This document shows positions 5,744 through 64,000 of a DNA stretch of 64,000 nt, in pieces. The stretch comes from an uncultured beta proteobacterium (GTDB lineage Bacteria > Pseudomonadota > Gammaproteobacteria > Burkholderiales > SG8-41): NCBI GenBank assembly GCA_963734595.1, contig CAVTHV010000018.1, positions 248,962 through 312,961 on the forward strand. Direction: 5' to 3'. Position numbers and translations under genes: made by a program. Position 1 is the stretch's first letter. Each line of letters opens with the position of its first letter. Under the pieces are notes generated by a model. The model was not told where the DNA came from. It made no database searches and saw only the letters and a list, made by a program, of their open reading frames with translations.

Positions 5744-5891
5744 AAAAATGCATCGGCCACAGAAAGCACAGAAAGCATCAGAGAACACAGAGAACACAGA
5801 GAAAATGACTGATTAATATTTAAAACAATATGATATGAGACATGATTCGTTGTTTGTTTTTCCTCTGTGACCTCCGTGTTCTCTGTGGCTA
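5744..5891. repeat. palindromic intergenic element, copy 1 (CACAGAGAA-type arms)
   Basis: Left arm is AAAAATGCATCGGCCACAGAAAGCACAGAAAGCATCAGAGAACACAGAGAACACAGAGAAAA. Right arm is TTTTCCTCTGTGACCTCCGTGTTCTCTGTGGCTAT. The core is AT-rich. Confidence 0.85.
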
Positions 5892-5954
5892 TAGGATTTC
5901 GTTTTTCTGATTTTGTCCCGGACTCTGAATCAACGTACAGGCAGGGAGACAACG

Positions 5955-6497
5955 ATGAGCGCAACGGTATTGCTTTACGATCCGACGGCGGCGCGCCAGG
6001 GCGCGGCGGGGCAGGCGCAGCAGGCGCTGCAGGGCCTGCGCGGCAAGGTCGTCGGTTTCATCGACAACGCCAAACCCAATTTCGAATATCTGGTCGACGA
6101 TCTCGCCGCGCAATTTCTCGGCCGCTACGGCGTCAGCCGCGTGATCAAGCGCAAGAAGCGCGCGGCATCGGTGGCGGCGGACGATGCGGTGTACGAGGAA
6201 CTCGCGCAGCAGTGCGACCTGGTGATCACCGGGTCGGGCGATTGAGGGTCGTGCGCGTCGTGGAGTATCCACGACTCCATAGAAATCGAGAAACGCGGCC
6301 GTGCCGCGATCACGGTGTGCTCGACGGCGTTTGCCACGCTGGGCCGGGCGCAGGCGCGGGCCCTCGGCCATCCCGATCTGCCGATCGCCGTCATCGCGCA
6401 TCCGTTCGGGATCCGCACGCGTGACGAGGTGCGGCAGATTGCGGCTCAGTGTGTCGAAGAGATCGTGAAACTCGTGAGCAAGGACTCTGCGAAATGA
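5955..6497 (+). CDS. UGSC-motif (seleno)protein; in-frame TGA at 6243-6245 read as selenocysteine
   Basis: GGGAGA RBS 6 nt before the ATG at 5955. ORFs 5913..6245 and 6315..6497 are in the same frame and separated only by the TGA. The joined product reads ...CDLVITGSGD-U-GSCASWSIHDSIEIEKRGRAAITVCSTAF... (a U-x-x-C motif). A hairpin follows the TGA. Confidence 0.75.
6257..6275 (+). promoter_or_regulatory. SECIS-like stem-loop downstream of UGA 6243-6245
   Basis: Perfect 7-bp stem GTCGTGG / CCACGAC with a 5-nt loop AGTAT. The stem starts 11 nt after the UGA. Confidence 0.5.
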
Positions 6498-7559
6498 GTG
6501 ACGATACGCCGGCGGAGCGCGCTGCACTGTTCGAAGCGCCCGACGATCTGGACGCGATCAACCGGCTTTACCGCGAGCGGCGCTGGAGCGACGGCCTGCC
6601 CATCGTGCCGCCGACGCAGGAGCGCGTGGCGCGCATGCTGGGCGCGACGCGCCGCGCGCGCGACGAAGTCGTTGCCGCCGTCGCCCCCGGTTACGGCGCG
6701 GCGACGGTCGAGCGGATCGCGATCAACGCCGTGCTCGCGGGATGCGACCCCGAGTACCTGCCGCTGCTGATCGCGGCGACCGAAGCGGTGGCGGCGCCCG
6801 AATTCAATCTGCAGGGCATACAGTCGACCACCAATCCGGTCGCGGTGTGGCTCATCGTCAACGGGCCCATCGCGCAGCGCCTGAACGTGAACAGCACGTT
6901 CAATTGCCTGGGGCAGGGGGCGTGGGCCAACGCCACGCTCGGCCGCGCGCTGCGATTGATCCTGCAGAACGTCGGCGGCGCGCTGCCGGGTGAAATGGAC
7001 CGGGCCACGCAGGGCCAGCCGGGCAAGTACAGCTTCTGCTGCGCCGAGAACGAGGCCGGCAATCCGTGGGAGCCGCTGCACGTCGAACGCGGATTCGCGC
7101 GCGAATGCAGCACGGTGACGGTGGTCGGCGCCGAAGGCACGATGAACATGAATTCCCATGCCAAGGACGCCGTGGAACTCGCGCGGGTGATCGCGGAGAC
7201 CATGATTCATCCGCCGAGCAACGAATACACCCACGGCGGCGAGCCGTGGCTGGTGCTCGGGCCGGAGCACGCCGAAGTTTTCCGGATGCGCCGGCTGGAG
7301 CAAGGCGGAGGTCAAGCAGCGGTTGTGGGAGCAATCGAAAATGAAAGCGGGCCGCATGAGTGCGAGGGACCTCATGCGCGCGGTCGATTCGCGCACCGCG
7401 GAACTGGGTCCGATCGGGCCCGAGACCCTGCTGCCGATCTCGGCGCGTGCCGAAGACATCGGCATCGTGGTCGCCGGCGGGCCGGGCACGCATTCGATTT
7501 ATATCCCGAGCTTCGGCAACACGCGCGCGGTGACGCGGGAAGTCGTTGACAGGCAGTGA
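6494..7559 (+). CDS. conserved hypothetical protein translationally coupled to the UGSC gene (one frameshift near 7290)
   Basis: The ATG at 6494 overlaps the UGSC stop (ATGA). The protein-like sequence (RWSDGLPIVPPTQERV...INAVLAGCDPEYLPLL...QGIQSTTNPVAVWLIVNGP...) continues in ORF 7323..7559 (...IGIVVAGGPGTHSIYIPSFGNTRAVTREV). Confidence 0.65.
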
Positions 7560-7634
7560 TTGAGTGATTGAGTGATTAAGTGATTCTGTGATTAAGTGAA
7601 ATGTATCTTTTAGGTCCTCATCCCTCATCCCTCG
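7556..7634. repeat. palindromic-element variant, copy 2 (GTGATTGA array plus CCTCATCC array)
   Basis: AGTGATTGAGTGATTGAGTGATTAAGTGATTCTGTGATTAAGTGA starts on the TGA stop at 7557, and is followed by CCTCATCCCTCATCCCTC. Confidence 0.7.
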
Positions 7635-7743
7635 GCACTTGGCGCTCGTGCGACGACGCTAACGTAATGCGTTGTTTTAATTATTAAAAAGTGTTCGCGC
7701 GGAGCACGCGGACGTGAACCAGAAAAAGGAGAGGTATTGATTG

Positions 7744-8130
7744 ATGGATGCTGCGTGGGAGGATGCGATCAAGCGTGGTGACGTCCAGACCGTCCTTGAT
7801 CTTCTTGGACGGGGTGTGGATATCGATGCCCGCGACCGATACGGACAGACTGGCCTCATGCTGGCCGCGCATGCGGGTCATCAGGAGGTCGTAGAAACAC
7901 TAATCGCTCATCGGGCAAATCTGAACGTCACCGCCAAGTTCGGTCTGAGCGCTTTGATGCTGGCCATTGTTGCCGGGCATGCGGAAGTCGCGCTCCTTTT
8001 GGCGAAAGCAGGGGCCGATCTTTCCCTGCGGGGAACCGGTGCTCCGGGATTCGCCGACAAGACTGCCTGTGATCTTGCCGAGAACCGCGGCATGCTGGCG
8101 CTATCCGCAGCATTGAAGCCTGAACTATAA
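7744..8130 (+). CDS. ankyrin repeat protein
   Basis: Repeated G-TaLM-AA--GH--vv--Ll--gAd modules. AAGGAGAGG RBS. Local GC is lower than in the flanks. Confidence 0.85.
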   Translation: MDAAWEDAIKRGDVQTVLDLLGRGVDIDARDRYGQTGLMLAAHAGHQEVVETLIAHRANLNVTAKFGLSALMLAIVAGHAEVALLLAKAGADLSLRGTGAPGFADKTACDLAENRGMLALSAALKPEL

Positions 8131-8133
8131 GCC

Positions 8134-8751
8134 ATGAGTGGCAAGATGAAGTCAGACGCGGAGCGGTGCCAGGAATACGAGACATTCAGGAAAATCGACG
8201 CCGCGTTTCGCGCGGGTGATCTTGCCGCGCTGCAAGCCGCGGTCGATGATCCGTCCACGGTGCCGAACGGTCCAATGCCGCTGACGATCGGCCCGTGCCT
8301 CGAGTACGCCATTTATCACAGCCCGTTGCCGTTTATCCGCACGTTGCTGGAAATCGGTGCCGATCCCAATCCGGCCGATCATGCCGGATTTCCACCCCTG
8401 ATCGCGGCATTGTCCTGCAGTCGGCCGCGGCCCGGATCGCCGGGACGGCCGGACGTGCTGGAAATCCTGAAACTTCTGCTCGCCTTCAAGTCCGATCCCG
8501 ATCAACGCGGTGTCAACGACTACACGCCGCTCCACATGGCTGTGAGCGAACGCAATTCAGCGGCCGTCGGGCTCCTCCTGCAAGGCGGCGCGGATCCGCG
8601 CCTCCGGACACGAATCGACGACTGTGAAACGCCTCGGGAGATGGCGGAAAAGATGGGCCTTCGCGAGATTGCAGAGTTGCTCGTTGCCGAAGTGGACGCG
8701 ACACTACTGCCGATATCACCGTCACAAAGGGCATGTTTGAAACTAAAATAA
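8134..8751 (+). CDS. ankyrin repeat protein
   Basis: Ankyrin-like modules (YTPLHMAVSERNSAAVGLLLQGGADP...). It starts 3 nt after the previous stop. Confidence 0.8.
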   Translation: MSGKMKSDAERCQEYETFRKIDAAFRAGDLAALQAAVDDPSTVPNGPMPLTIGPCLEYAIYHSPLPFIRTLLEIGADPNPADHAGFPPLIAALSCSRPRPGSPGRPDVLEILKLLLAFKSDPDQRGVNDYTPLHMAVSERNSAAVGLLLQGGADPRLRTRIDDCETPREMAEKMGLREIAELLVAEVDATLLPISPSQRACLKLK

Positions 8752-9183: not shown

Positions 9184-9236
9184 TTTTCCTTCGCGTTCCT
9201 TTGCGATCCTTCGCGGCCTTTGCGTTCATGCTTTTT
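9184..9236. repeat. solitary right arm of the palindromic element, copy 3
   Basis: TTTTCCTTCGCGTTCCTTTGCGATCCTTCGCGGCCTTTGCGTTCATGCTTTTT. Confidence 0.8.
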
Positions 9237-9448
9237 GGGAATGAGCGGCTTTTAAAGCCGGCGCCCGTAGATCGCAGATCGACCCGTTCCGGGCATTTCT
9301 CGTTCTCGAAAGCAGTCAATTTGAGATGCGCAATAGTCGAATCAGTATGCGCTGGTATACTTAGAGCTGCGCAGCGAACAGTTTTTTGTTGCGCCCACGG
9401 TTGAATTTTGTTTCTGCACCACAAAGTAAAAGTGAGGATTACGCTTAT

Positions 9449-21098: not shown

Positions 21099-21183
21099 AA
21101 AAAGCATTAACCACAGAGAGCACAGAGAACACAGAGAAAGAAAAACATCACGGATCGGTTCGGAATTCTCCACTCTCTGTGTA
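21099..21183. repeat. palindromic element, copy 4 (CACAGAGAA type, degenerate right arm)
   Basis: AAAAAGCATTAACCACAGAGAGCACAGAGAACACAGAGAAAG ... CTCCACTCTCTGTGTA. Confidence 0.75.
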
Positions 21184-23488: not shown

Positions 23489-23724
23489 AAAAACGTGAAA
23501 GCATAGACACGAAGGACACAAAGGACACGAAGGAAGGCAAAAAACAAATAAATGTCCCGGAATATCATTATGAAAACAACCGGGACTTTGCAAAGCTACC
23601 GTTTCAGCACATTGGACATAAAGTATCGCCTGATTTCATTTCGATTGATTTGATTTCTCTGTGGCATATTTGTCCTGTTCGTGTCTTCCTTCGTGTCCTT
23701 TGCGTCCTTCGCGTTCATGCTTTC
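23489..23724. repeat. palindromic element, copy 5 (GACACRAAG-type arms)
   Basis: GAAAGCATAGACACGAAGGACACAAAGGACACGAAGGAAGG ... CTTCCTTCGTGTCCTTTGCGTCCTTCGCGTTCATGCTTTC. It starts right after the TAG stop at 23486-23488. Confidence 0.85.
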
Positions 23725-27471: not shown

Positions 27472-28785
27472 ATGGCAGACCTCCATCACATCGTCATCGT
27501 CGGCGGCGGCGCCGGCGGCCTGGAGCTGGCGACGCGGCTGGGCGATTCGCTCGGCAGGCGCGGGCGCGCGCGCATCACGCTGATCGACCGCACGCGCACC
27601 CATCTGTGGAAACCGTTGCTGCATGAAGTTGCGGCCGGCAGCATGGACCTCGATCATCACACCCTCAACTATCTCGCCCAGGCGCGCTGGCACCACTTCC
27701 AGTTCCAGCACGGCAGCATGGACGGCCTCGACCGCGCGCGGCGCGTGGTGTCGGTGGCGCCGACGCTCGACGACGGGGGCCGCGAGCTGATCCCGCGCCG
27801 GGAGATCGGCTACGACACGCTGGTGATCGCGGTCGGCAGCCATACCAACGATTTCGGCACGCCCGGCGCGCGCGAGCATGCGATCAGCCTCGATACGCTG
27901 AAGCAGGCGGAGCTGTTTCACCAGCGGCTGATCAATGCCTGCATCCGCGCCAATGCCCAGGCCGCGCCGCTCGCGCCCGAGCAGCTCAACGTCGCGATCA
28001 TCGGTGCCGGGGCGACCGGGGTCGAGCTTGCCGCCGAGCTGCACAAGACGACGCGCGAACTGGTGGCTTATGGCCTGGAGAACATCGATCCCGAGCGCGA
28101 CATCAAGCTCACGCTGATCGAGGCCGGCCCGCGCGTGCTGCCGGCGCTGCCCGAGCGGCTGTCGGCCGCGACCGAGGAACTGCTTGCGTCGCTCAGGGTG
28201 CGGGTGCTGACCGGCGAGCGCGTCACCGAAGTGCGCGCAGACGGCGTGACGACGGCGAGCGGCAAGAAGATACCGGCGGAACTGACCGTGTGGGCGGCCG
28301 GCATCATGGCCCCCGAGTTTCTCGAAAACATCGGCGGGCTGGAGACCAACCGGCTGAATCAGCTGGTGGTGACGCAGACGCTGGAGACGACGCGCGACGC
28401 GAACGTGTTTGCCTTCGGCGACTGCGCATGTTGTCCATGGCCGGGCCATGAGCGCGGCGTGCCGCCGCGCGCGCAGGCGGCGCATCAGCAGGCCTTTCAC
28501 CTGGTGAAGAATCTGGGGCGGCGCCTTGCCGGCCGGCCGCTCAGGCCTTACGTCTACCGCGATTTCGGTTCGCTGGTTTCTCTCGGCAAATACTCGACCG
28601 TCGGCAGCCTGATGGGCGCGCTCATGGGCGGCAGCATTTTCATCGAGGGCCTGTTCGCGCGATTCATGTACGTTTCGCTCTACCGCATGCATCTCTACGC
28701 GCTGCACGGTTTCACCAAGATGCTGTTCGATACGCTGGTGCGCATGATCACGCATCGCACGGAGCCGCGCGTCAAACTTCATTAA
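27472..28785 (+). CDS. ndh: type II NADH dehydrogenase (NAD(P)/FAD-dependent oxidoreductase)
   Basis: HIVIVGGGAGGLELATRLG, a second dinucleotide fold VAIIGAGATGVELAAEL, GDCA motif. Confidence 0.9.
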   Translation: MADLHHIVIVGGGAGGLELATRLGDSLGRRGRARITLIDRTRTHLWKPLLHEVAAGSMDLDHHTLNYLAQARWHHFQFQHGSMDGLDRARRVVSVAPTLDDGGRELIPRREIGYDTLVIAVGSHTNDFGTPGAREHAISLDTLKQAELFHQRLINACIRANAQAAPLAPEQLNVAIIGAGATGVELAAELHKTTRELVAYGLENIDPERDIKLTLIEAGPRVLPALPERLSAATEELLASLRVRVLTGERVTEVRADGVTTASGKKIPAELTVWAAGIMAPEFLENIGGLETNRLNQLVVTQTLETTRDANVFAFGDCACCPWPGHERGVPPRAQAAHQQAFHLVKNLGRRLAGRPLRPYVYRDFGSLVSLGKYSTVGSLMGALMGGSIFIEGLFARFMYVSLYRMHLYALHGFTKMLFDTLVRMITHRTEPRVKLH

Positions 28786-28935
28786 AAGCTTGAACGCGAA
28801 GGACACAAAGGACACGAAGGAAAAAATCGAAAACCCGATATTTCTCCAGGGGTATTGTCTTTCTATCGATCTGGCGGCCATGATTTCCGCCGTGCACGAA
28901 GGAAATCTTCGGGACTTTTGCAATGCTCTTGTATT
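28784..28935. repeat. palindromic element, copy 6 (left arm intact, right arm degenerate)
   Basis: The ndh TAA is embedded in TTAAAAGCTTGAACGCGAAGGACACAAAGGACACGAAGGAAAAAA. The decayed right end reads ...ACTTTTGCAATGCTCTTG. Confidence 0.7.
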
Positions 28936-29533: not shown

Positions 29534-30169
29534 ATGATGGCGGAACCAACGGGTGTTGCGGTCATCGAACCGCGCGAGAACGGGCCCTTGCGGGTGCAAG
29601 GCGTGAAGGAAATCAGGAATTCGCGCGGTGAGACGATAAAAGCGGAGGAAACGTTTTTTCTCTGCCGTTGCGGGGCTTCGCAGAACAAGCCCTTTTGTGA
29701 CGGAACCCACAAGAAAATCGGTTTTTCCGGCGCGCGCGTTTCCGCATCTGCGCCCGCGATCAAAGACTATGCCGGCGGGCAGATCACGATACACGACAAC
29801 CGTTCGGTCTGTGCGCACGCGGGGTACTGTACCGACCGTTCGCCCAATGTGTTCCGGATGAAAAAGGAGCCGTGGATCGATCCCGACGGCGATCCGGCAG
29901 ATAAAACGATCGCCACCATTAACATGTGCCCGTCGGGGGCGCTCTCCTACTCGATCAACCGGGCCGCGCAGCAGGCGGAATCGACGATGCCGTGCATTCG
30001 GATCCTCAAGGACGGTCCGTATTTCGTGACCGGCGGGCCTCAGCTCAAATGTGATGCTGCGCCGCATATCGCCGGGCGCTACACCTTGTGCCGCTGCGGG
30101 GCTTCAAAGAACAAACCGTACTGCGACGGCTCGCACTGGAACAGCGGTTTCAAGGACGACAAAAACTAA
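29534..30169 (+). CDS. CDGSH iron-sulfur domain protein (two CDGSH motifs)
   Basis: CRCGASQNKPFCDGTH and CRCGASKNKPYCDGSH. The start is ATG 29534 or 29537. Confidence 0.85.
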   Translation: MMAEPTGVAVIEPRENGPLRVQGVKEIRNSRGETIKAEETFFLCRCGASQNKPFCDGTHKKIGFSGARVSASAPAIKDYAGGQITIHDNRSVCAHAGYCTDRSPNVFRMKKEPWIDPDGDPADKTIATINMCPSGALSYSINRAAQQAESTMPCIRILKDGPYFVTGGPQLKCDAAPHIAGRYTLCRCGASKNKPYCDGSHWNSGFKDDKN

Positions 30170-30313
30170 AAGCATTGGCCACAGAGAGCACAGAGCACAC
30201 AGAGAACGAAAAAAATAATAGAAACAACGCAATAGAAGGAAACCCCGGCGCGATTTAGCTTACTGGTTTTAGTCGGGGTTCTTTCTCTGATATCTCTGTG
30301 TTCTCTGTGGCTA
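30167..30313. repeat. palindromic element, copy 7 (CACAGAGAA type), spanning exactly between two convergent stop codons
   Basis: TAAAAGCATTGGCCACAGAGAGCACAGAGCACACAGAGAAC ... CTCTGATATCTCTGTGTTCTCTGTGGCTA. The left TAA (30167-30169) is the CDGSH stop. The right CTA (30311-30313) is the LysR TAG. Confidence 0.85.
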
Positions 30314-31228
30314 TGTTTCTGACGCTGTCCGCAGCGCCTGTTCCAGCCAGCCCGGTTCCTGCAGCCGCGCGGCAAACCATTGCAGGGCTTTCCCTTTGTG
30401 TTCGGTGCGCCAGGCCAGGAACAGCGGCGCGCTGATTTTCGGCTCCTCCGTCTGCCTGATGACCAGTCTGCCGGCTGCAGCTTCGCGCTCGGCGATGTGG
30501 CGCGGCAGATTGCCGACGCCCAGCCCCATGCGCTGGGCGATGACTTTGGCGTCGAGGTCGTGGACAGTCAGGGTCTCCTGACCGGAAAACAATCCCACCG
30601 TGCGCGGCGGCAGATTGCGTGAGCTGTCGGCGACGGATACCGCGCGGTGGTTGAGGATATCGCTGGTCCTGAGCGGTTCCGGGAGACGGGCGAGCGCGTG
30701 GCCGGGCGCTACCGCGAACACCCATTCGATCCCGCCCAGCGGCCGCACGATATAGCCGCCTCCCGCCGGCCTGTCTCCGGATACGCCGATCACAAGATCC
30801 GCGCGTCCGCCGGCAAGCGCGTCCCAGCCGCCGCCCAGCACTTCAGTGAACATGCGCAGCCGCGTGCCGCATTGCTCCTGAAAAAAACTTTCCGCAAGCT
30901 CGAGTATCGCCCGTGCCGGAATGACGCCATCGTAGGCGATCCTGAGTTCCGCTTCCCAGCCGGTGGCGACGCGTTTGACGCGCGATTCCAGATCGCCGGC
31001 AGCGCGCAGCAGATTCCGTCCTTCGTCGAGAAGTTCGCGGCCTGCCGTGGTGAGCTTGGCACGGTGGCCGCGGCGGTCGAACAGCAGCACGTCGAGATCT
31101 TCCTCGAGTTTTTGCACGGTGTAGGTCACCGCCGACGGCACCCGGTGCAGTTCGTCGGCCGCCGCGGCGAAGCTGCCTTTGCGATCGATGGCATCGAGTA
31201 CCAGCAGGGCATCGAGAGACAGTCGCAT
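30311..31228 (-). CDS. LysR family transcriptional regulator
   Basis: HTH region LDALLVLDAIDRKGSFAAAADELHRVPSAVTYTVQKLE. It is divergent from the RND operon. Confidence 0.9.
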   Translation of the reverse strand: MRLSLDALLVLDAIDRKGSFAAAADELHRVPSAVTYTVQKLEEDLDVLLFDRRGHRAKLTTAGRELLDEGRNLLRAAGDLESRVKRVATGWEAELRIAYDGVIPARAILELAESFFQEQCGTRLRMFTEVLGGGWDALAGGRADLVIGVSGDRPAGGGYIVRPLGGIEWVFAVAPGHALARLPEPLRTSDILNHRAVSVADSSRNLPPRTVGLFSGQETLTVHDLDAKVIAQRMGLGVGNLPRHIAEREAAAGRLVIRQTEEPKISAPLFLAWRTEHKGKALQWFAARLQEPGWLEQALRTASET

Positions 31229-35500: not shown

Positions 35501-35747
35501 ATTCATCCTGGGCACCCTTCCGCTCGCGATTGCAACCGGCGCCGGCGCCGGCGCCCGGCAGTCGATCGGCACGACGGTCGTGTCCGGCATGCTGTTTGCC
35601 ACCATGATCGGGATTTTCGTGATCCCCGTGTTTTATGTCGTGATCCAGCGCATCAGCGAGGGCAGGCGGCCGTTCCGGCACGACCCGTCCTCCGGCGGCC
35701 TGGGCGCGCCCGGCGTCGCCGCGGGCGCGGGGAACGAGGGGAGCTAG
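32548..35747 (+). pseudogene. efflux RND transporter permease (AcrB/HAE1-like), at least 10 frameshifts
   Basis: MFNFFIDRPVF start. Long AcrB-like blocks occur in ORFs 33022..34341, 34281..34790, 34796..35941 and 35457..35747 (e.g. ...GLVLAIGIVVDDAIVVVE..., ...[19 protein letters not shown]...). Confidence 0.85.
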
Positions 35748-35750
35748 AGC

Positions 35751-42744: not shown

Positions 42745-42850
42745 TCAAAATGCCAACAAAAAACAATAGACAGGATTACAGGATTTACATGATTTTCCCG
42801 GGTTCCAATCTTGTTCACCCTGTAAATCCTGTCCATAGCCTGTCTTTTGA
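42745..42850. repeat. palindromic-element variant, copy 8 (ACAGGATT-type arms)
   Basis: CAAAATGCCAACAAAAAACAATAGACAGGATTACAGGATTTACATGATTTT ... CCCTGTAAATCCTGTCCATAGCCTGTCTTTTGAAT. It starts about 10 nt after the MFS stop. Confidence 0.65.
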
Positions 42851-44536: not shown

Positions 44537-44738
44537 GAAAAAGCATTAACGCGAAGGACGCGAAGGTCCGCAAAGGTAACGCGAAAGTAAAAGCTGGATA
44601 AAATCAGAATTTAGAAACACGTGCTATGACGCTTTGACGGGCTTGGTGTTCTGATTTCTGCAATTCTGGTTGTCTTCAATAATCTTTGCGTTTTGCTTGT
44701 GCGGTTCCTCGCGTCCTTTGTGTCCTTTGTGTCTTTTT
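44537..44738. repeat. palindromic element, copy 9 (GCGAAGGAC-type arms)
   Basis: AAAAAGCATTAACGCGAAGGACGCGAAGGTCCGCAAAGGTAACGCGAAAG ... CTTTGCGTTTTGCTTGTGCGGTTCCTCGCGTCCTTTGTGTCCTTTGTGTCTTTTT. Confidence 0.85.
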
Positions 44739-44771
44739 GACGTGCTTTGTCAAGATATCAAGGAGGGGAGA

Positions 44772-45695: not shown

Positions 45696-45698
45696 ATC

Positions 45699-45741
45699 GA
45701 AAAGCATGAACGCAAAGGATCGCAAGGGTTCGCAAAGGTCG
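45699..45741. repeat. solitary left arm of the palindromic element, copy 10
   Basis: GAAAAGCATGAACGCAAAGGATCGCAAGGGTTCGCAAAGGTCG, starting 4 nt after the TAA stop. Confidence 0.8.
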
Positions 45742-45794
45742 TGAAGAACGGCAATGGCGGGTGCATTTTTATGGCAGTTGTTGAGGAGGCAAAG

Positions 45795-47228: not shown

Positions 47229-47244
47229 GAAGCTTATAAGTTCA

Positions 47245-47467
47245 CAAAGAGCATGAACGCGAAGGACGCAAAGGATCGCAAAGTAACGCGAAGGAAAACA
47301 AAGGAAAATAATGGATCAATATTTTTCGGCGTTGTGAGTTGAGTCGGCAGCTGTGATGATGCCAGACATAGCCGCTAATTATCCAGGACCAGACCTTTTG
47401 ATAAGTCCCGCCCGGTTTTCCTTTGCGAACCTTTGCGGACCCTCGCGTCCTTTGCGTTAATGCTTTT
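47245..47467. repeat. palindromic element, copy 11, with conserved internal module M
   Basis: CAAAGAGCATGAACGCGAAGGACGCAAAGGATCGCAAAGTAACGCGAAGG ... [module M] ... TTTTCCTTTGCGAACCTTTGCGGACCCTCGCGTCCTTTGCGTTAATGCTTTT. Confidence 0.85.
47376..47404 (-). promoter_or_regulatory. promoter-like box pair inside module M (minus strand)
   Basis: Read on the minus strand: TTATCA - 17 nt - TAATTA. Confidence 0.3.
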
Positions 47468-47481
47468 AAGCGGGTTTTATA

Positions 47482-48670: not shown

Positions 48671-48876
48671 AAAAAAGCGATGACACAAAGGACACAAAGG
48701 ATCACAGAGGAACGAGACAAGAAACACAGGGAAAATTAAATAAACCGCGTTCTTTGCAGATCCGGCGCCGATCGCAAGATGTCTGGTTATCCATTCAGAA
48801 CACGACCGTCATATATTGATCCGTTATTCCTTTGCGTGTCCTCTGTGTCCTTTGCGTCCTTCGCGTTTATGCTGTT
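48671..48876. repeat. palindromic element, copy 12 (GACACAAAG / CACAGAGG mixed arms)
   Basis: AAAAAAGCGATGACACAAAGGACACAAAGGATCACAGAGGAAC ... TTCCTTTGCGTGTCCTCTGTGTCCTTTGCGTCCTTCGCGTTTATGCTGTTGAAC. The right end lies 7 nt from the TAA of the minus-strand gene. Confidence 0.85.
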
Positions 48877-48882
48877 GAACTT

Positions 48883-49620: not shown

Positions 49621-49708
49621 TGCCGGAAATTGTCGTTGTGGACCCGGCAGTATAACGGAAGCGGTTAGAATATCGCTTCGCCAGTTCACCCTTTCCCGGA
49701 GTCAGGAA

Positions 49709-50644: not shown

Positions 50645-50648
50645 ACGC

Positions 50649-50870
50649 TAAAAGCATAAACGCAAAGGACACAGGAAGCCAAGATCAAAAAGAGCATTAA
50701 CGCAAAGGACGCAAAGTAACGCGAAGGTTCGCAAAGGAATACATAACCGAGAACTCTTGTCGAGACCCGTTAAGAGTTCCACACAATGAAAACAGACATT
50801 GGATTTCATTTTTCCTTGTTTTCCTTCGCGTTCCTTTGCGTACCTTTGTGTCCTTTGCGTTCATGCTTTT
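50649..50870. repeat. palindromic element, copy 13 (two tandem left termini)
   Basis: TAAAAGCATAAACGCAAAGGACACAGGAAGCCAAGATC, then AAAAAGAGCATTAACGCAAAGGACGCAAAGTAACGCGAAGGTTCGCAAAGG ... TTTTCCTTCGCGTTCCTTTGCGTACCTTTGTGTCCTTTGCGTTCATGCTTTT. Confidence 0.85.
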
Positions 50871-50886
50871 ATTGAAGGGATGTAGC

Positions 50887-51531: not shown

Positions 51532-52179
51532 ATGAGCAAACAGGAAACGGTGGTTGTGGTGCACGGCCTGTGGATGCACGGCGTGGTGATGACGCTGGTG
51601 CGGCGGCGCATCGAACGCTGCGGCTACCGGGCGCTGAGCTACTCGTATCCGTCGATGGCACTCACGCTCACCGAGAACGCCGCGCGGCTGGCGCAATTCT
51701 GCCGCGACATTTGCCTCGACAGCGGCGCATCGCGATTGCATTTCGTCGGCCACAGCCTCGGCGGGCCGGTGATACTCAGGATGCTGGAGGGCGCGGCGGA
51801 CCTGGATATCGGGCGCATCGTGCTTGTCGGGCCGCCGATCCTCGGCAGTTTCGCTGCGGAGCGCTTTGCGCGGCTGCCGGGAGGCCGGAAAGCCCTCGGC
51901 CACAGCATTCCCGAGTGGCTGGAAAGCGCTCCGCCGTCAGGCCTCGGGCGCTACGAGATCGGCGTTATCGCCGGCGATGCCCATATCGGACTCGGCACGC
52001 TGATTGTGCCGGCGCTGCCCCGCCCGAACGACAGCGTGGTCAGCGTGGCCGAGACCCGGCTGCCGGGCGCGAGCGATCACATCGTGCTCAACGTCAGCCA
52101 TACCGCAATGCTGGTTTCGGCCGCCGTCGCCCGGCAGATCTGCGAATTTCTGGAGCACGGAGCGTTCAAAAGAGACTAG
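51532..52179 (+). CDS. alpha/beta hydrolase (esterase/lipase-like)
   Basis: VVVVHGLWMHG...FVGHSLGG... Confidence 0.8.
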   Translation: MSKQETVVVVHGLWMHGVVMTLVRRRIERCGYRALSYSYPSMALTLTENAARLAQFCRDICLDSGASRLHFVGHSLGGPVILRMLEGAADLDIGRIVLVGPPILGSFAAERFARLPGGRKALGHSIPEWLESAPPSGLGRYEIGVIAGDAHIGLGTLIVPALPRPNDSVVSVAETRLPGASDHIVLNVSHTAMLVSAAVARQICEFLEHGAFKRD

Positions 52180-52420
52180 GGACTAGGGATGAAGGATGAG
52201 GGATGAGGGAAAGCGGGGAATGGGGATGAGTAATGGGAATTAAGTGATTGAGTGATTCGTAAATCGTGAATCGTCAATCGTGAGTCGTGAGAGGTTAATT
52301 TAATTTTGTTTTTCCTCTGTGTCCTTTGTGTCCTTCGTGTCTCTGCTTTGCGGTTTTTGATCGGGTTACCTTTGCGAACCTTCGCGGACCTTCGCGTCCT
52401 TTGCGTTCATGCTTTTGATC
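52177..52420. repeat. composite palindromic element, copy 14 (GGGATGAG array, GTGATTGA/AATCGTGA array, then CCTTCGC-type right arm)
   Basis: It starts on the TAG stop: TAGGGACTAGGGATGAAGGATGAGGGATGAGGG...AAGTGATTGAGTGATTCGTAAATCGTGAATCGTCAATCGTGAGTCGTGAG ... TTTTCCTCTGTGTCCTTTGTGTCCTTCGTG...CCTTTGCGAACCTTCGCGGACCTTCGCGTCCTTTGCGTTCATGCTTTT. Confidence 0.8.
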
Positions 52421-53603: not shown

Positions 53604-53626
53604 CGCCGGCGCGGTATAATTTCCCT

Positions 53627-53795
53627 AAGAGCGCATTTCAAGAAGACCAGGACAGACGAAGCCACAGAGAGCACAGAGTTTTCTTTTCAATACCGGGTGC
53701 ACGGAGAGAATCAAAACACTTATTTAAAACAACCGGATACGAAACAGGTCCCGTTGCCGGTTTTTCCTCTGTGTTCTCTGTGATCTCCGTGGCTA
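53627..53795. repeat. palindromic element, copy 15 (CACAGAGAA type)
   Basis: AAGAGCGCATTTCAAGAAGACCAGGACAGACGAAGCCACAGAGAGCACAGAG ... TTTTTCCTCTGTGTTCTCTGTGATCTCCGTGGCTAA. Confidence 0.8.
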
Positions 53796-53838
53796 ATTCA
53801 TTTTGTTACGGGCTCTAAGCCGGCACAGGAGCACGACC

Positions 53839-55739: not shown

Positions 55740-55757
55740 GTCCCGCTAACGCCCCGT

Positions 55758-56087
55758 CAAAAGCATTAACGCGAAGGACGCAAAATTAAAAAGAGCATGA
55801 ACGCGAAGGACGCGAAGGTTCGCAAAGGAATGCAAGATCATGAATTCAAATCGAGAATCATCGAATCAGTAACACCGATCAAAGGAAATGTCGGGTTGTC
55901 GCTATCTTTTATTTGATTTTCCTTCGCGTTACTTCGCGTCCTTCGCGTCCAAGATTTTTTTGTTCTGTGCCGTTAGCTGCGTCCGAATATCCATACAGAG
56001 CCGCAAATTATCTAAGCCGGATCTTTGATAAGTCCTGCCCCGGCTTTCCTTTGCGCACCTTCGCGGACCTTTGCGTTAATGCTTTTG
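55758..56087. repeat. composite palindromic element, copy 16 (two left termini, inner right arm, module M, outer right arm)
   Basis: CAAAAGCATTAACGCGAAGGACGCAAAA / TTAAAAAGAGCATGAACGCGAAGGACGCGAAGGTTCGCAAAGG ... TTTTCCTTCGCGTTACTTCGCGTCCTTCGCGTCC ... module M ... TTTCCTTTGCGCACCTTCGCGGACCTTTGCGTTAATGCTTTTGAAC. It abuts the phaC stop (CTA 56090-56092). Confidence 0.85.
56005..56031 (-). promoter_or_regulatory. promoter-like box pair inside module M (minus strand)
   Basis: Read on the minus strand: TTATCA - 15 nt - TAATTT. Confidence 0.25.
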
Positions 56088-56089
56088 AA

Positions 56090-57832
56090 CTAGATCTCGT
56101 GCACATAACTCCCCGGCGCGGGACCGAGCACCGGGTATTTTTTGCTGCCGGGCGCGCGCGCCGCGACTTTCGGGCCGCAGTGCCTGCCGAGCCATCCCGC
56201 CCAGTTGTCCCACCAGCTGCCCTCGACCTTGTGCTGCTGTTTGTGCCATTCCTCCGGCGGCGCTGAGTTGGTTTCGCCGCTCCAGTAGCTGCGCTTGGGC
56301 GGTTTCACCGGCGGATTGATGATGCCGAGGATGTGGCCCGAGCTCGACAGCGTGTAGCGCACCGGGGCGTCGATCTTGCCCGCGATCTTGAACGTCGCTT
56401 TCCACGGCGCGATGTGGTCCTCCTCGCAGCCCACCGCATACAGCGGCTGGCGGATCCGGCCGAGATCGATGCGGTGGCCGGCCAGCTCCAGCGCGTCCTT
56501 TTTGTCGAGCTTGTTGTTCAGGTAAAACTCGCGCAGGTAGTAGCTGTGCATCGTGTGCGGCATGCGCGTCATGTCGGTGTTCCAGTACAGCACGTCGAAC
56601 GGCGGCGGCGTCTCGCCGTAGAGGTAGTTGTGCACGAAATAGTGCCAGATCAGGCTGTTCGAACGCAGCATGCGGAACGCGCGCCCCATGTCGTGGCCGT
56701 CGAGGTAACCCTGGTGCGCCATCGTTTCCTCGAGCGTGTCGATGGTCTCTTCGTTGATGAACACCTCGATGCCGCCGGGGCGCGAGAAGTCGATCAGCGT
56801 GGTGAGCAGCGTCCAGTGCGGGACCGGAACCTGCCCGGCGTTGGGATATTCGCGGTTGAACCACGCCATCAGCGCCGCGAGCGCGGTGCCGCCGATGCAG
56901 TAGCCTGCCGCGTGCGCGTGGGAGGTGCCGCAAATGCTGCGCGCGACGTCGATGGCCTGGCGCAGTCCCTTCATCAGGTAGTCGTCGAACGTCGTGTCGG
57001 CATCGCGCGCGGTCGGGTTTTTCCAGCTCACGACGAACACCGTGAAGCCCTGGTTCACCAGGTAGCGCAGCAGGCTCTTTTTTTCGTTGAGATCGAGGAT
57101 GTAATACTTGTTGATCCAGGGCGGGATGATGACCAGCGGCACCGTGTGCACCTCGGCGGTCGTTGGCGCGTACTGGATGAGCTCCATCAGTTCGTTGCGG
57201 TAGACCACCGCGCCCGGCGTGGTGGCGAGATTCTTGCCGACCTTGAACGCCGAACGGTCGACCATCCGCACGTCGCCGTTGCGCAGGTCCTCGAGCCACA
57301 GCTTGAGTCCGGCCGCAATGCTTTGCCCGCCGGTCTCCCAGAATCTGCGGACGGCGACGGGATTGGTGAAAAAATAATTGGTCGGCGCAACCGCGTTCAG
57401 CCACTGGCGTGCCCAGAACGTCGCGCGGCGGCGGTCTTTGGCCGGAACCCCCGGCGTCTCGAACAGCGCCTCCTGCGACCAGCGGGTGTAGAGCAGGTAG
57501 AACTGCTTCAGGATCGAGAGCGCCGGCAATTCGGACCACGCGGGATCGGCGAAGCGCGCGTCGTCGGCTGCCGCCGTGTGACACGGCCGCGGCTGCAGCC
57601 CGGTCACGGTTTGCCAGGCGTGGAGCTGCAACTCCTGCAGATCGCGCGCGAGATCGGCTAGCGCCGCCGACAGCTCGGCGGGATGCGTGACCCAGCCCCC
57701 GGTGACTTTGTTCATCGAGGCGCCGATGCCGAACGGGTCGACCGAGCGGTGGAGCCGGGCCATCTCGTCGGTCCACTGCGCGAAGCCGGCCTGCCACTCG
57801 GCGGGGGGCGTATCGGTGGTTGGCTTCTTCAA
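56090..57832 (-). CDS. phaC: class I poly(R)-hydroxyalkanoate synthase
   Basis: 580 aa, intact. Lipase-box GYCIGG, ...PPWINKYYILDL..., ...HIAPW..., ...SGHI... Confidence 0.95.
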   Translation of the reverse strand: MKKPTTDTPPAEWQAGFAQWTDEMARLHRSVDPFGIGASMNKVTGGWVTHPAELSAALADLARDLQELQLHAWQTVTGLQPRPCHTAAADDARFADPAWSELPALSILKQFYLLYTRWSQEALFETPGVPAKDRRRATFWARQWLNAVAPTNYFFTNPVAVRRFWETGGQSIAAGLKLWLEDLRNGDVRMVDRSAFKVGKNLATTPGAVVYRNELMELIQYAPTTAEVHTVPLVIIPPWINKYYILDLNEKKSLLRYLVNQGFTVFVVSWKNPTARDADTTFDDYLMKGLRQAIDVARSICGTSHAHAAGYCIGGTALAALMAWFNREYPNAGQVPVPHWTLLTTLIDFSRPGGIEVFINEETIDTLEETMAHQGYLDGHDMGRAFRMLRSNSLIWHYFVHNYLYGETPPPFDVLYWNTDMTRMPHTMHSYYLREFYLNNKLDKKDALELAGHRIDLGRIRQPLYAVGCEEDHIAPWKATFKIAGKIDAPVRYTLSSSGHILGIINPPVKPPKRSYWSGETNSAPPEEWHKQQHKVEGSWWDNWAGWLGRHCGPKVAARAPGSKKYPVLGPAPGSYVHEI

Positions 57833-57949: not shown

Positions 57950-58200
57950 AACGCAAAAGCCCAAGATCAAAAAAAGCCTGAACGCAAAGGGCGCGAAGGA
58001 CCGCAAAGGTTCGCAAAGGAAAAACAAGGGCAAATGATAATTAAAACCTCGCATTCATAATCGTTATTGCAATATTTCCGGAAATTGCCGTTCTTGGTTT
58101 ACTTTGCATTACTTCGCGAACGCTGTTGCGTCCTTTGCGTCAATGCTTTTTGTGAACTTATATATCAGTAACCTTTGCGCCCTTTGCGTTAATGCTCTAG
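57950..58200. repeat. composite palindromic element, copy 17 (in the phaC-hrpA divergent region)
   Basis: AACGCAAAAGCCCAAGATCAAAAAAAGCCTGAACGCAAAGGGCGCGAAGGACCGCAAAGGTTCGCAAAGG ... TTTGCATTACTTCGCGAACGCTGTTGCGTCCTTTGCGTCAATGCTTTTT ... ACCTTTGCGCCCTTTGCGTTAATGCTCT. Confidence 0.8.
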
Positions 58201-61200: not shown

Positions 61201-61961
61201 ACGAGGGCGACAGCGTCGCGATCCGCCTGTTCGACGTGCCGCAGACCGCCGAGGCGGCGATGCGCGCCGGCGTCACGCGCCTGATGCGCCTCATGCTCAA
61301 GGAGCAGATGAAGCAGCTCGAAAAGGGCCTGCGCGGCTTCGAGCAGGCGGCGCTGCAGCTGCGCGCCGTCGCGAACGCGGACGATTTGCGCGGGGACCTG
61401 ATCGCCGCGATCACCGACCGCGCGTTCATCGGCGAGGACGCGCTGCCGCGCACGCAGCAGGAATTCGAGGTCCAGGTGAAGCGCGCGCGCACGCGCCTGC
61501 CGGCGGTGAGCGAGGCGGCGTGCCGGCTGTTCGTCGCGATCGCCGCCGAATATCACAGCGTGTCGCTGAAGCTCGGCGGCAGCGGCGGGGCGCTCGCGCG
61601 CGTCGCGGCCGACGTGCGCGCGCAACTCGCGCGGCTCGTCTGCAAGGGCTTTATCAGCGCGACGCCGTGGGAGCAGCTCGCGCATCTGCCGCGCTATCTG
61701 AAGGCGCTGGCGCTGCGGCTCGAAAAATATGCGCGCGATCCCGCGCGCGACGCGAAGCACGCGCAAAGCATCGCCGAGCTGTGGAAGCGTTACGAGGAAA
61801 GACTGGACAAGCAGAGGAAGGCGGGCGCGGTGGATCCGCGGCTGGAGGAATTCCGCTGGCAGCTCGAAGAGCTGCGGGTGTCGCTGTTCGCGCAGGAGCT
61901 GAAGACGCCGTACCCGGTGTCCTACAAGCGGCTGGACAAGATCTGGAATGCGATGCGGTGA
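58218..61961 (+). pseudogene. hrpA: ATP-dependent RNA helicase HrpA, about 7 frameshifts
   Basis: [48 protein letters not shown] and QRAGRCGR motifs, plus the long HrpA C-terminal region, distributed over ORFs 58218.., 58817.., 59278.., 59873.., 60549.., 60905.., 61053..61961. Confidence 0.85.
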
Positions 61962-62035
61962 GAAAATCAAAAAGAGCATTAACGCAAAGGGCGCAAAGGT
62001 TCGCGAAGTAACGCAAAGGGTAGCCAGGGCAGGGC

Positions 62036-62062
62036 TTATCAAAGTTCTGGTCTGGATAATTA
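62036..62062 (+). promoter_or_regulatory. promoter-like box pair in module M, copy 1 upstream of the GxxExxY gene
   Basis: TTATCA - 15 nt - TAATTA on the plus strand. Confidence 0.3.
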
Positions 62063-62165
62063 GCGGCTCTGTGCGGTTATGCGAACGCCGGCTGAAATCC
62101 GGGACAAAAAGCATGAACGCAAAGGACGCGAAGGATCGCAAAGGAAGGCCAGGATTTATCAAAGG

Positions 62166-62193
62166 ACCGGAACTGGATAATACGACGCTGTGC
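62166..62193 (+). promoter_or_regulatory. promoter-like box pair in module M, copy 2 upstream of the GxxExxY gene
   Basis: TTATCA - 16 nt - TAATAC on the plus strand. Confidence 0.3.
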
Positions 62194-62371
62194 GGTTATG
62201 CGGATGCCTGGTGGAATCCAGGACAAAAAAGCATGAACGCGAAGGACGCGAAGGTTCGCAAAGGAAGACAAGACCGAAATTTAATAAGAACCGGCAATTA
62301 ACAAACCGATAACCTGTAACCGCCGCTGCGTTGTGCGTTAGTGGACCTGTGGCGTCAATCAGGAAGGCAGC

Positions 62372-62739
62372 ATGGACGAAGAAGCTGCAGCAAGGCAGGT
62401 GCTCGATTCAGCGATGAAGGTTCATACTGCGCTGGGGCCGGGCCTGCTGGAAAGTGCCTACGAAGTCTGCCTGGACTACGAACTGTCGAAACGCGGCATA
62501 AACGTCAGCAAGCAGGTGCCGATAGCCGTCCGTTACGATGGGGTCGCGACTCCTGCATAGTCTGACTGGTCGAGAGCAAGGTCGTGGTTGAAGTAAAGGC
62601 TATTGAAAAACTTCTGCCGTTACATCATGCACAACTGCTCAGTTACCTGAAACTCGGCGGATACAAGATCGGCCTGTTGCTGAACTTCCATGCCCTTCAC
62701 CTGCGGGACGGGATTAAACGCATCGTCAACGGCATTTAA
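62372..62739 (+). pseudogene. GxxExxY protein (PD-(D/E)XK nuclease-like family), disrupted
   Basis: AGGAAGG RBS. MDEEAAARQVLDSAMKVHTALGPGLLESAYEVCLDYELSKRGINVSKQVPIAVRYDGV..., then a stop at 62558-62560. The family-typical C-terminus LVESKVVVEVKAIEKLLPLHHAQLLSYLKLGGYKIGLLLNFHALHLRDGIKRIVNGI continues in another frame from 62566 to TAA at 62737-62739. A few residues around the junction appear to be deleted. Confidence 0.75.
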
Positions 62740-62953
62740 CCCCTCCGTCTATCTGGTCCTCGATATTTTTAGCTTTTCCTTCGCGAACCTTTGCGTCATT
62801 GCTTCATGCTTTTGACCTCGTTGTTTACTCCCGTAGCAGCCGGCATTTCTATTTCCCCGAATTCCGGTTTTCGATAAATATTATTTCTGTATTTCCTTAG
62901 CGAACCTTTGCGATCCTTCGCGTCCATTGCGTTAATGCTTTTGAACTTAAACA

Positions 62954-63793
62954 TCACTCCCGCACCAGCCAATCCACCTTCACCCCGCCCGCGCCGTCGA
63001 CCGACAGCGCGCGCCACAGCCAATCCAGCAGCGGCTGCGCTTCGTCCTTGAACTGCCACGGCGGGTTCACCACCAGCATGCCGCAGCCGGGAATCACCGG
63101 CGAATTCTCCGCCATGATCGAAAACTCCAGCCGCAGGATCTTGCGGATGCCGGTCTTCTCCACGTCGCGCGCGAAGCCGAGCATGGCGCCATGCGCCATC
63201 AGCGGATACCAGATCGCATACGTGCCGGTCGCCCAGCGCTCGTGCGCTTCCTTCAGCGCCGTGGCGATGCGCGCGAATTCCTTCGCGCGGTCGAACGAGG
63301 AATCGATCAGCACCAGCCCGCGCCGCTCTTTCGGCGGCAGGTACGCTTTCAGCGCCTGGTAGCCGTCGAGCAGCTGGATCACCGTCTGCTGCTCGCGTCC
63401 CATCCACTTGCAGAGGTCGGCAAAATCGGTCTTGTTGAGCTCGGTCAGCACCATGCGGTCGCCGGGGCGCATGAGCCCGCGCGCGATGCGCGGCGAGCCG
63501 GGATAGAACCGCAGCTTGTGGTCGGGGTTTTCCGCCTTCACCGCGTCGAGGTACGGCGCGAGCGCCGCGGGGATGTCCTTGCGGTCCCACAGGCGGGCGA
63601 TGCCGTTCTCGTATTCGCGCACCTTCTGCGCCCAGGCGTGGGTGAGGTCGTAGCGGCCGATGCCGGCGTGGGTGTCGAGATAGAAGTAGGGCTTGTCCTT
63701 TTGCGCGAGCGCGACGAGCAGCCGCGTGAGCAGCGCGTGCTTGAAGACGTCGGCGAAATTGCCGGCGTGGAAGAGGTGGCGGTAGGAGAGCAT
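62954..63793 (-). CDS. rlmJ: 23S rRNA (adenine2030-N6)-methyltransferase RlmJ
   Basis: MLSYRHLFHAGNFADVFKH...YPGSP...LIDSSFD...WYP...NPPW. Confidence 0.9.
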   Translation of the reverse strand: MLSYRHLFHAGNFADVFKHALLTRLLVALAQKDKPYFYLDTHAGIGRYDLTHAWAQKVREYENGIARLWDRKDIPAALAPYLDAVKAENPDHKLRFYPGSPRIARGLMRPGDRMVLTELNKTDFADLCKWMGREQQTVIQLLDGYQALKAYLPPKERRGLVLIDSSFDRAKEFARIATALKEAHERWATGTYAIWYPLMAHGAMLGFARDVEKTGIRKILRLEFSIMAENSPVIPGCGMLVVNPPWQFKDEAQPLLDWLWRALSVDGAGGVKVDWLVRE

Positions 63794-63817
63794 GCTTGCT
63801 CTAAGCTTAGAAAATCG

Positions 63818-64000
63818 TTTAAAAGCATAGACGCGAAGGACACAAAGGATCGCGAAGGAAATCGAAAACGAAAACGAGATACAAAAATAAAAATGATCCC
63901 GAAGCGGAACGGTGGGCGGCGACTCTTATTCAAGAACCGATTAATTGCCCGGCATCGAATTTATTGTTATGCCTTCCTTTGCGTGTCCTTCGCGTCCTTT
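63818..64000. repeat. palindromic element, copy 19 (runs into the window end)
   Basis: TTTAAAAGCATAGACGCGAAGGACACAAAGGATCGCGAAGGAAATCG ... GCCTTCCTTTGCGTGTCCTTCGCGTCCTTT. Confidence 0.8.

Follow-up and report, generated by a model that had tools for sequence, protein, structure and literature searches.

What are the palindromic elements that occupy so many intergenic regions in this 64-kb stretch of DNA from an uncultured betaproteobacterium (contig CAVTHV010000018.1; the whole stretch that was analyzed is hereafter called the window), and how could they have come to lie there? The preliminary description of the window held that at least 19 loci share one architecture, namely a conserved terminus, hypervariable arms of short tandem units and an unconserved core. 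We found that the canonical architecture is common to about 15 of the 19 loci, whereas the canonical terminus is missing from E2 (7554), from E8 (42765) and from the left-hand portion of the 52174 composite. The interpretation that we favor, and to which we give an even chance, is that the canonical copies are foldback non-autonomous insertion elements representing the gene-less or decayed form of a GxxExxY nuclease cassette that occurs across phyla. In such a cassette, the same kind of arms are set tightly around a gene for a GxxExxY nuclease of ~125 aa that belongs to the PD-(D/E)XK type, and the locus E18 is an example in which the gene is damaged.

The window has a G+C content of 60-66%, and its intergenic islands are richer in A+T. 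Within these islands, the layout reads as a terminus followed by a purine-rich arm, a core, the complementary arm and the inverted terminus. A search of both strands with the 12-mer AAARGCATKAAC, allowing at most one mismatch, yielded 24 matches against 0.37 expected (~65-fold enrichment). The 19-mer given for the terminus in the preliminary description has a single exact match in the window and four matches at up to three mismatches. Tandem Repeats Finder (TRF) recovered tandem units of 7-10 nt (GCRAAGGAC, CACAGAGAA, GTGATTGA, GGGATGAG and ACAGGATT) at the positions where they had been noticed, and the summed length of the 19 loci, 3,860 nt or 6.0% of the window, agrees with the earlier hand count of about 4 kb.

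The arms proved to be different from the hypervariable simple repeats, complementary within each copy, that had been described. In an alignment of 12 left arms with 10 right arms taken as reverse complements, all 22 fell into register with hardly any gaps (consensus tcAAAAAGCATKAAC-GCRAAGGAC-GCRAAGGWY-CGCRAAGGWW-CGCRAAGGAAAA; subrepeat consensus GCRAAGGNN), and a profile of the terminus together with the arm detects 29 arms, 16 left and 13 right, that span 9186-64000, with 22 of the 29 located in the last 20 kb. Partner arms are ~50 nt long and 80-85% complementary. Within the main subfamily, left arms match the partners of other copies no worse than their own partner; for example, the left arm at 44539 scores 72 against the right arm at 47247 and 32 against its own right arm. 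Co-evolution of the arms within a copy was not seen inside the main subfamily. Thus, the arm of the main family is a conserved terminal inverted repeat of ~50 nt that contains subrepeats and comes in subfamilies, not a hypervariable simple repeat. A canonical copy is ~150-330 bp long and carries this ~50-bp inverted repeat at each end, starting with the terminus AAAARGCATKAAC and continuing into 3-4 degenerate 9-10-nt subrepeats of the CRCNRAG type. Purine transitions separate the three subtypes of the main family (GCRAAGG, ACRAAGGAC and CACAGAGA), and the copy at 48675, in which units are mixed, bridges subtypes. It is only among these related subtypes that the unit type changes while the terminus remains constant, as had been claimed more generally; the GTGATTGA, GGGATGAG and ACAGGATT arrays lack the canonical terminus and belong to different families.

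The cores, compared all against all, are unrelated apart from one 26-nt match and the copies that carry a module of ~90 nt, so that the lack of core conservation noted previously holds for most copies, the exceptions being four cores that share the module and one that holds a remnant of a GxxExxY gene. The module (pattern GGGCAGGACTTATCAAAG..CCGG..CTGGATAATT.GCGGCTCTGT..) is present in E11, in E16 and twice in E18, as well as at the orthologous place in L018, a locus from a relative that is described below; it was seen in the window and L018 only. It is lineage-specific, one arm always adjoins it, and a small hairpin within it shows a compensatory change (CCGG/CCGG versus CCTGG/CCAGG). A sigma-70 promoter was considered for the module and rejected because the TTATCA-GATAAT spacing is only 13 nt and a promoter scan was empty there.

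Among neighboring profile arms in the same intergenic region, there are 10 left-right, four left-left and three right-right pairs and no right-left pair, and the order is left-left-right-right in E16 and left-left-left-right-right in E18. Such an arrangement is expected if whole hairpin elements insert into one another, as opposed to independent half-sites. The solitary arms (9186, 28780 and 45699), doubled termini (50648/50688 and 55756/55789) and composites (52174, 57969-58198 and 61969-62946), from which ongoing rearrangement had been suggested, are all present. In addition, two adjacent ankyrin-repeat open reading frames (ORFs; 7741-8751) lie between the E2 arrays and the E3 arm and might be the cargo of a larger composite.

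The link to a nuclease comes from E18, where two ORF pieces match TIGR04256 with 59.2 and 48.3 bits (cutoff 35), with a frameshift and a stop codon between them; because the assembly is indel-prone (see below), this damage may be partly an artefact. An intact homolog matches Pfam PF13366, a family of the PD-(D/E)XK superfamily. The preliminary description mentioned simple-repeat flanks around GxxExxY and four-helix-bundle genes in other genomes, and this is borne out for both kinds of gene. For the former, we took an unbiased sample of 80 metagenome loci picked by GxxExxY protein similarity alone, 67 genes of which had enough flanking sequence. The 220 nt upstream were aligned locally with the reverse complement of the 220 nt downstream and the best score was taken, with 143 stretches shifted by 1.4-2 kb at the same loci as controls. 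The median score is 37 for the GxxExxY genes (40 or more in 46%, 30 or more in 69%) and 18 for the controls (0.7% and 1.4%, respectively). Per 120 nt, there are 2.06 copies of the CRCNRAG motif on the upstream side and 2.04 of its complement on the downstream side (background 0.18; ~11-fold enrichment), and 57% of the GxxExxY genes have at least two such units on both sides. The arms of these metagenome cassettes consist of arrayed units such as CGCAAAG, CACAAAG, CGCAGAG and CACCAAG, in many cases directly adjoin the start and stop codons, and have termini such as TTTCAC|GCAAAG, TCTCAC|GCAAAG and TTAAC|GCAAAG. In a Kiritimatiellia cassette located between icd and proS, the left arm is doubled and its terminus, GTTAAC|GCAAAGG, resembles those of the window. 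The contexts of P0108 amount to one locus in one Kiritimatiellia population and are uninformative on mobility. In another locus (L119, 1-560), short hairpins of the CACAAAG type with a constant AGAATCAATCCG linker are arranged head to tail on both sides of the GxxExxY gene. Seven viral contigs carry GxxExxY relatives, several of them with inverted arms of tandem units, which are of the CRCNRAG type in L188 and A+T-rich in L191 and L193. In the latter two (viral contigs of 74 and 102 kb), distant GxxExxY-like genes are flanked, on either side of 1501-1815, by inverted arrays of A+T-rich units of ~13 nt, and the outer terminus GCTTCGCTTGAAAT is common to both.

The AlphaFold model of a GxxExxY protein (P0001; predicted local distance difference test score, pLDDT, 94.8) is a minimal alpha-beta PD-(D/E)XK core, to which the nearest structures are Cas4 SSO0001, Cas4 Pcal_0546, lambda exonuclease and RecE (template modeling score 0.45-0.57); PADLOC likewise reports faint similarity to Cas4. 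The residues E28, D68, E78 and K80 are invariant or nearly so and fit the PD-(D/E)XK catalytic motif. A search of PDB sequences with the GxxExxY profile returned nothing significant. The family is very large, with at least 8000 protein clusters found. In the one paper found to classify PF13366, the function is listed as unknown, and the phylogeny shows multiple transfers between divisions (PMC3424549).

The terminus and arm are not confined to the window. When one genome per species was searched for exact matches to the 19-mer AAARGCATKAACGCRAAGG, at least 94 loci were obtained, against ~35 chance matches that we estimate for 1.2e12 positions. About half of the matches listed fall in coding DNA, and ~40 of the 94 listed continue into further CRCNRAG units, usually with a complementary arm. 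True terminus-and-arm copies were found in at least seven phyla, the hosts being Burkholderiales metagenome-assembled genomes, Geomonas, Desulfuromonadaceae, Verrucomicrobia, several Chloroflexota, Planctomycetaceae, Cytophagia, Thioalkalivibrio and another gammaproteobacterium; two of these loci (L062 and L092) have a GxxExxY gene that immediately adjoins the arms or is enclosed by them. In viral contigs, the same 19-mer gives two coding matches only, which we judged to be chance, and the plasmid collection contains no match to the terminus-arm-module combination. The units in other phyla are CGCAAAGG or CGCCAAGG, without GGA, for which reason a role of the AAGGA units as CsrA sponges or Shine-Dalgarno mimics was discarded; DNA curvature from helical phasing was discarded in view of the unit period of 7-8 nt elsewhere.

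Arrays of other kinds were also seen. PF05635 four-helix-bundle genes lie between inverted arrays of tandem units in L089 (GTTAAATGA units) and L130 (GGTTATT units), in accord with what the preliminary description says of such genes. The Thioalkalivibrio locus L040 has the same unit type as E8 and a similar terminus. In this locus, from Thioalkalivibrio sulfidiphilus, there are three hairpins within 8 kb (1695-1790, 7340-7460 and 7885-7955), each with another unit type, namely GCAAAGG with a AAAAGCATTAAC terminus, ACAGGAT (with the terminus like that of E8) and AGGTACA. The E2 array pair recurs in a relative, L039, where GTGATTG x5 is followed by TCATCAT x5 (2112-2215) and an RNA fold that involves G.U pairs is favored on one strand (z -4.7 versus +0.6).

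The relatives found are labeled as Burkholderiales or Betaproteobacteria, and two of these are syntenic with parts of the window: L018, with 86-87% DNA identity over metK and hrpA, and L083, with 66-90% protein identity over eight genes. Exact look-ups of proteins encoded in the window, for a strain-level comparison, gave no record. The terminus and arm are present in independent assemblies of the relatives (L018, L083 and the JAUXMZ01 loci). E11, E12 and E13 have occupied counterparts in L083, as does the left part of E18 in L018; at these shared sites, the arms are conserved and the cores diverged, and even the doubled left terminus of E13 recurs in L083, located between the orthologs of the TauE and histidine-phosphatase genes. 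The nitroreductase gene is preceded by the ACAGGATT hairpin (E8) in the window, and its ortholog in L083 by a CACAGAGA-type hairpin.

Other sites are empty in the relatives. E15 is absent from both L083 and L018, in which the empty site consists of TATAAT, 10-14 nt and CACRGGAGG-ATG; E14 is absent from L083, where the flanking genes overlap at ATGA; and the block E16-phaC-E17 is absent from L018, where ~20 nt separate the metK stop from the hrpA start. These presence/absence differences imply gain or loss since the lineages split, at places that are necessarily transcribed. In the window, E16 and E17 lie on either side of phaC, which encodes a class I polyhydroxyalkanoate (PHA) synthase (56090-57832, minus strand). 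Beside the elements, gene content varies between the window and L083: missing from the syntenic stretch of L083 are the region 44538-46763 of the window (E9, a SMP-30/gluconolactonase-like gene, E10 and a TctC gene) and a 3-hydroxyacyl-CoA dehydrogenase gene (49604-50644). A variable spot is also seen in L018 downstream of hrpA (60-1771), where a 399-aa ORF without a Pfam match and a 160-aa ORF for an M48-like peptidase adjoin the same terminus-arm-module, at the place where the window has the GxxExxY remnant.

Table. Elements and the enclosed nuclease gene in the window (z, RNA fold against dinucleotide shuffles; E, profile E-value)
Feature	Coordinates	Strand	Description
E1	5744..5893		Complete hairpin, CACAGAGA subtype; TRF CACAGAGAA x5; z -3.3
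E2	7554..7633	+	GTGATTGA x5.6 array, then CCTCATC x2.6; no canonical terminus; z +0.9, +1.1
E3	9186..9238	-	Solitary right arm and terminus; E 2e-14
E4	21100..21180		Short CACAGAGA-subtype copy, right arm reduced; z -1.8
E5	23496..23723		Complete, ACRAAGGAC subtype; profile matches both arms; z -10.5
E6	28780..28822	+	Solitary left arm over stop codon of upstream gene, no partner; E 3e-10; z 0.3
E7	30168..30315		Complete, CACAGAGA subtype; z -9.7
E8	42765..42850		Short hairpin, ACAGGATT units, non-canonical terminus CAATAG|ACAGGAT; z -3.6
E9	44538..44732		Complete, right terminus degenerate; z -5.2
E10	45699..45739	+	Solitary left arm; E 1e-10
E11	47243..47470		Complete; ~90-nt module in core, 47331-47419 (minus strand); stop codon 18 nt before, next start codon 14 nt after; z -7.3
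E12	48675..48880		Complete, mixed ACAAAGGAC and CACAGAGGA units; z -3.3
E13	50648..50874		Extra truncated left arm 50648-50673 and complete element 50688-50874; z -11.7
E14	52174..52419		Composite of GGGATGAG, GTGATTGA and GTGAATC arrays, then two right arms; canonical terminus 52405-52416
E15	53623..53823		CACAGAGA subtype, between TATAAT box and ribosome-binding site of PEBP-family gene; z -3.3
E16	55756..56090		Nested: outer arms 55756-55784 and 56041-56090; inner hairpin 55789-55958; module 55958-56046 (minus strand); z -6.6 whole, -5.1 inner hairpin
E17	57969..58198		Complete, with extra right arm 58170-58198; z -3.0
E18	61969..62946		Nested composite: left arms 61969, 62105, 62226; right arms 62816, 62946; modules 62021-62110, 62146-62228
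Damaged GxxExxY (TIGR04256 / PF13366) nuclease gene	62372..62739	+	Inside E18 arms 62226-62270 and 62772-62816
E19	63817..64000		Cut by window end; z -3.0

With respect to how such elements might spread, we infer the following scheme. The subrepeat arrays would serve as protein-recognition sites and possibly as homology arms. A GxxExxY nuclease expressed from intact copies elsewhere could recognize these arrays and start a break-and-copy event, similar to homing, that would move the arms, together with what they carry, into intergenic DNA as well as into cores of copies already present. Subsequent decay of the cargo would leave solo hairpins with unrelated cores. The inserted copies would be co-transcribed with their neighbors, and their long stems would probably act as terminator-, processing- or stabilizer-like hairpins.

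Several observations weigh against the origin of the canonical copies from a nuclease cassette. Only one of the ~19 loci contains a GxxExxY gene, and this gene is damaged, so that an intact copy elsewhere in the genome has to be assumed. An enzymatic activity of GxxExxY proteins in mobility is likewise presumed; to our knowledge, no PD-(D/E)XK protein moves DNA alone. The structural matches of the GxxExxY model are weak (best E-value 4e-3), and for the GxxExxY gene no pair of empty and occupied hairpins was found. At E11, E12, E13 and the left part of E18, the window and its relatives both carry elements, which would fit old, selectively retained elements equally well. Finally, arms of this kind enclose other cargo as well (VapBC in L064 and a DUF433 gene in L051), so that the arms could be generic carriers with GxxExxY as a frequent passenger.

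A further-reaching proposal, which we put forward only tentatively and consider doubtful, is that the GxxExxY nuclease together with inverted arms of CRCNRAG subrepeats makes up a self-propagating module of a new kind that employs no DDE, HUH, serine or tyrosine recombinase. If this were the case, the module would propagate both inside a genome and from one genome to another, across many phyla and some phages, through nuclease-initiated copying, which would target intergenic DNA and existing foldback copies; thousands of solo hairpins would then be both relics and landing pads, and the PF05635 four-helix-bundle cassettes, with other unit types, would represent a parallel system with the same architecture.

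The alternative that fares best, although we consider it unlikely, is that the copies are classical MITEs (miniature transposable elements with inverted repeats) moved in trans by the transposase of an insertion sequence (IS) elsewhere in the genome, with the GxxExxY, VapBC and DUF433 genes as mere passengers. Terminal inverted repeats with subrepeats are what this explanation would predict, given that transposase-binding ends carry subrepeats in many transposons, and solo ends, nesting, insertion polymorphism and varied cargo, including ordinary genes such as phaC that are bracketed by copies, are equally compatible with it. It is harder to reconcile with the lack of target-site duplications: in the 25-nt flanks of 12 copies, the longest direct match is 0-6 nt with no consistent repeat, and there is no duplication at the empty sites in L083 and L018 either. 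Furthermore, no transposase or integrase was detected among the ~55 ORFs of the window that were scanned, as the preliminary description had stated; the cores are unrelated, unlike deletion derivatives of one IS; and in many phyla the arms are tightly and specifically associated with one gene, abutting the start and stop of GxxExxY.

It appears rather improbable that the copies are structures selected by the host and kept in place, i.e., bidirectional terminators, RNase III processing sites or mRNA-stabilizing hairpins, for which mobility is historical or incidental. The canonical copies are predicted to fold as long hairpins (z -3 to -12 against dinucleotide shuffles; no fold better than shuffles was obtained for the GTGATTGA/CCTCATC locus at 7554, the 52174 composite and the solo arm at 28780), their long stems lie between an A run and a T run, and the copies begin 0-20 nt past stop codons and end 7-60 nt ahead of the next start codon. 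These features, together with the orthologous sites that are occupied in relatives with conserved arms and diverged cores and the lack of enrichment of conventional terminators in 44.4-64 kb, are in line with a host function, and there is a precedent in the Correia elements, in which RNase III cuts MITE stems (PMC10969869). However, if pairing in RNA were under selection, G.U-type mismatches between the arms should exceed the A.C type, whereas we counted 31 and 29, respectively, in the window and 83 and 84 on the sense strand of 37 cassettes, with no excess on either strand. Thus, RNA pairing was dropped as the force that keeps the arms complementary; this complementarity looks like a property of the DNA, namely inverted copies of one recognition array, although the transcripts still fold. 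A strong terminator would also be harmful at E15, between the -10 box and the ribosome-binding site, and at E14, where the genes overlap in the relative. The A and T runs that flank the stems are absent from the family in other phyla, and the presence of the same sequence in at least seven phyla suggests transfer, not local selection.

Integron-like recombination sites of the attC type are a very improbable identity for these elements. In integrons, the attC sites belong to a cassette array adjacent to intI and have R''/R' core sites, RYYYAAC / GTTRRRY; the copies in the window share with them imperfect palindromes with AAC ... GTT near the ends, and the cargo elsewhere is small and often of the toxin-antitoxin type, but the agreement with the core-site consensus is limited to AAC/GTT, the copies are longer than attC and scattered among housekeeping genes without an array, the gene lies inside the palindrome rather than beside it, and the window encodes no integrase. 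That the family is an assembly or chimera artefact of the contig has a negligible probability given that, despite many frameshifts in the window (hrpA in at least six frame pieces, intact in L018), the same elements recur in short-read assemblies made independently and in genomes of isolates (such as Geomonas and Thioalkalivibrio), both at orthologous positions and elsewhere.

The surroundings of the elements are otherwise unremarkable. The ~55 scanned ORFs of the window include ordinary genes, such as those for three TctC-family receptors, a resistance-nodulation-division (RND) efflux system, the class I PHA synthase, HrpA and an aminotransferase, and none of them resembles a REP-associated tyrosine transposase (RAYT). 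A scan of the whole window against Rfam gave no match at the gathering score and no rRNA; there is no tRNA or transfer-messenger RNA (tmRNA) gene in the window, and tblastn detected no PF05635-like gene in it. The S-adenosylmethionine synthetase (54536-55739) belongs to the archaeal type (PF01941; NCBIfam PRK04439 models), in a genome with a betaproteobacterial look in other respects. The hrpA gene (58218-61961), the L018 ortholog of which is an intact 1237-aa ORF, is broken into reading-frame pieces, and metK (54536-55789) and acrB (33022-35941) are split likewise. It looks as if the window comes from an indel-prone assembly (perhaps of unpolished long reads) or a pseudogene-rich lineage. An indel-prone assembly calls for caution as to run lengths, the distinction between 9- and 10-nt units and the designation of pseudogenes; the existence of the family is unaffected.

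Both the GxxExxY (PF13366) proteins and the "23S rRNA intervening sequence" proteins with a four-helix bundle form very large families of unknown function. The finding that GxxExxY genes typically lie within inverted arrays of short units, and that gene-less arms make up ~6% of a betaproteobacterial region, provides these families with a concrete context: a mobile cassette, a candidate nuclease and candidate recognition sites. It is also relevant for annotation, as the copies sit in 5' leaders and inside operons, and for genome evolution, as gene blocks with copies on both sides, such as phaC, vary between relatives.

Literature searches found no description of such arms or of a link between them and GxxExxY genes, in agreement with the preliminary description, and a 2024 review of prokaryotic MITEs contains none. 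Among known systems, the contrast with MITEs that had been drawn holds only in part, since inverted repeats, nesting, solo ends and insertion polymorphism are mostly MITE-type foldback behavior, whereas the lack of a target-site duplication and the unrelated cores are not. The bacterial MITEs Correia, ERIC, Chunjie and Nezha are portrayed in PMC10969869 and PMC3184786 as short, non-coding, intergenic elements with terminal inverted repeats and stable hairpins that insert into operons and near genes and occur as full and partial copies, all of which applies to the elements of the window; for Chunjie, 9-bp direct repeats and 21-bp inverted repeats are given there (PMC3184786). By contrast, the window elements have ~50-bp inverted repeats of 3-4 subrepeats, unrelated cores and no target-site duplication, lack a known cognate IS and share the same ends in at least seven phyla.

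The distinction from repetitive extragenic palindromic (REP) sequences, bacterial interspersed mosaic elements (BIMEs) and CRISPR stands, and the copies do not form an attC array either. REPs are single palindromes of 20-40 nt in which the GTAG-type head is conserved and with which a RAYT (Y1 HUH) gene is associated. The window elements resemble REP/BIME/REPIN (REP doublets forming hairpins) in being dense, extragenic and palindromic, often just past stop codons, and in lacking target duplications, but each unit comprises two ~50-nt arms with a core of 50-600 nt between them. In contrast to CRISPR arrays, in which equally long direct repeats alternate with unique spacers of similar size, the repeats in the window are inverted pairs scattered between genes. 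Two further systems may be compared by analogy only: the short tandemly repeated repetitive (STRR) sequences of cyanobacteria, which are intergenic tandem heptamers found even inside structural RNA helices, and the eukaryotic Foldback elements of Drosophila, with inverted ends of tandem subrepeats and conserved tips. The intervening sequences of 23S rRNA consist of inverted arms that form a long stem around a small PF05635 four-helix-bundle ORF. The copies in the window differ from these in that they lie between protein genes rather than in rRNA, enclose a PF13366 rather than a PF05635 gene, and have arm units of the CRCNRAG type as opposed to the GGTTATT and GTTAAATGA units at PF05635 genes. 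Common to both is a small ORF within inverted arms, and the PF05635 genes of L089 and L130 are themselves flanked by arrays.

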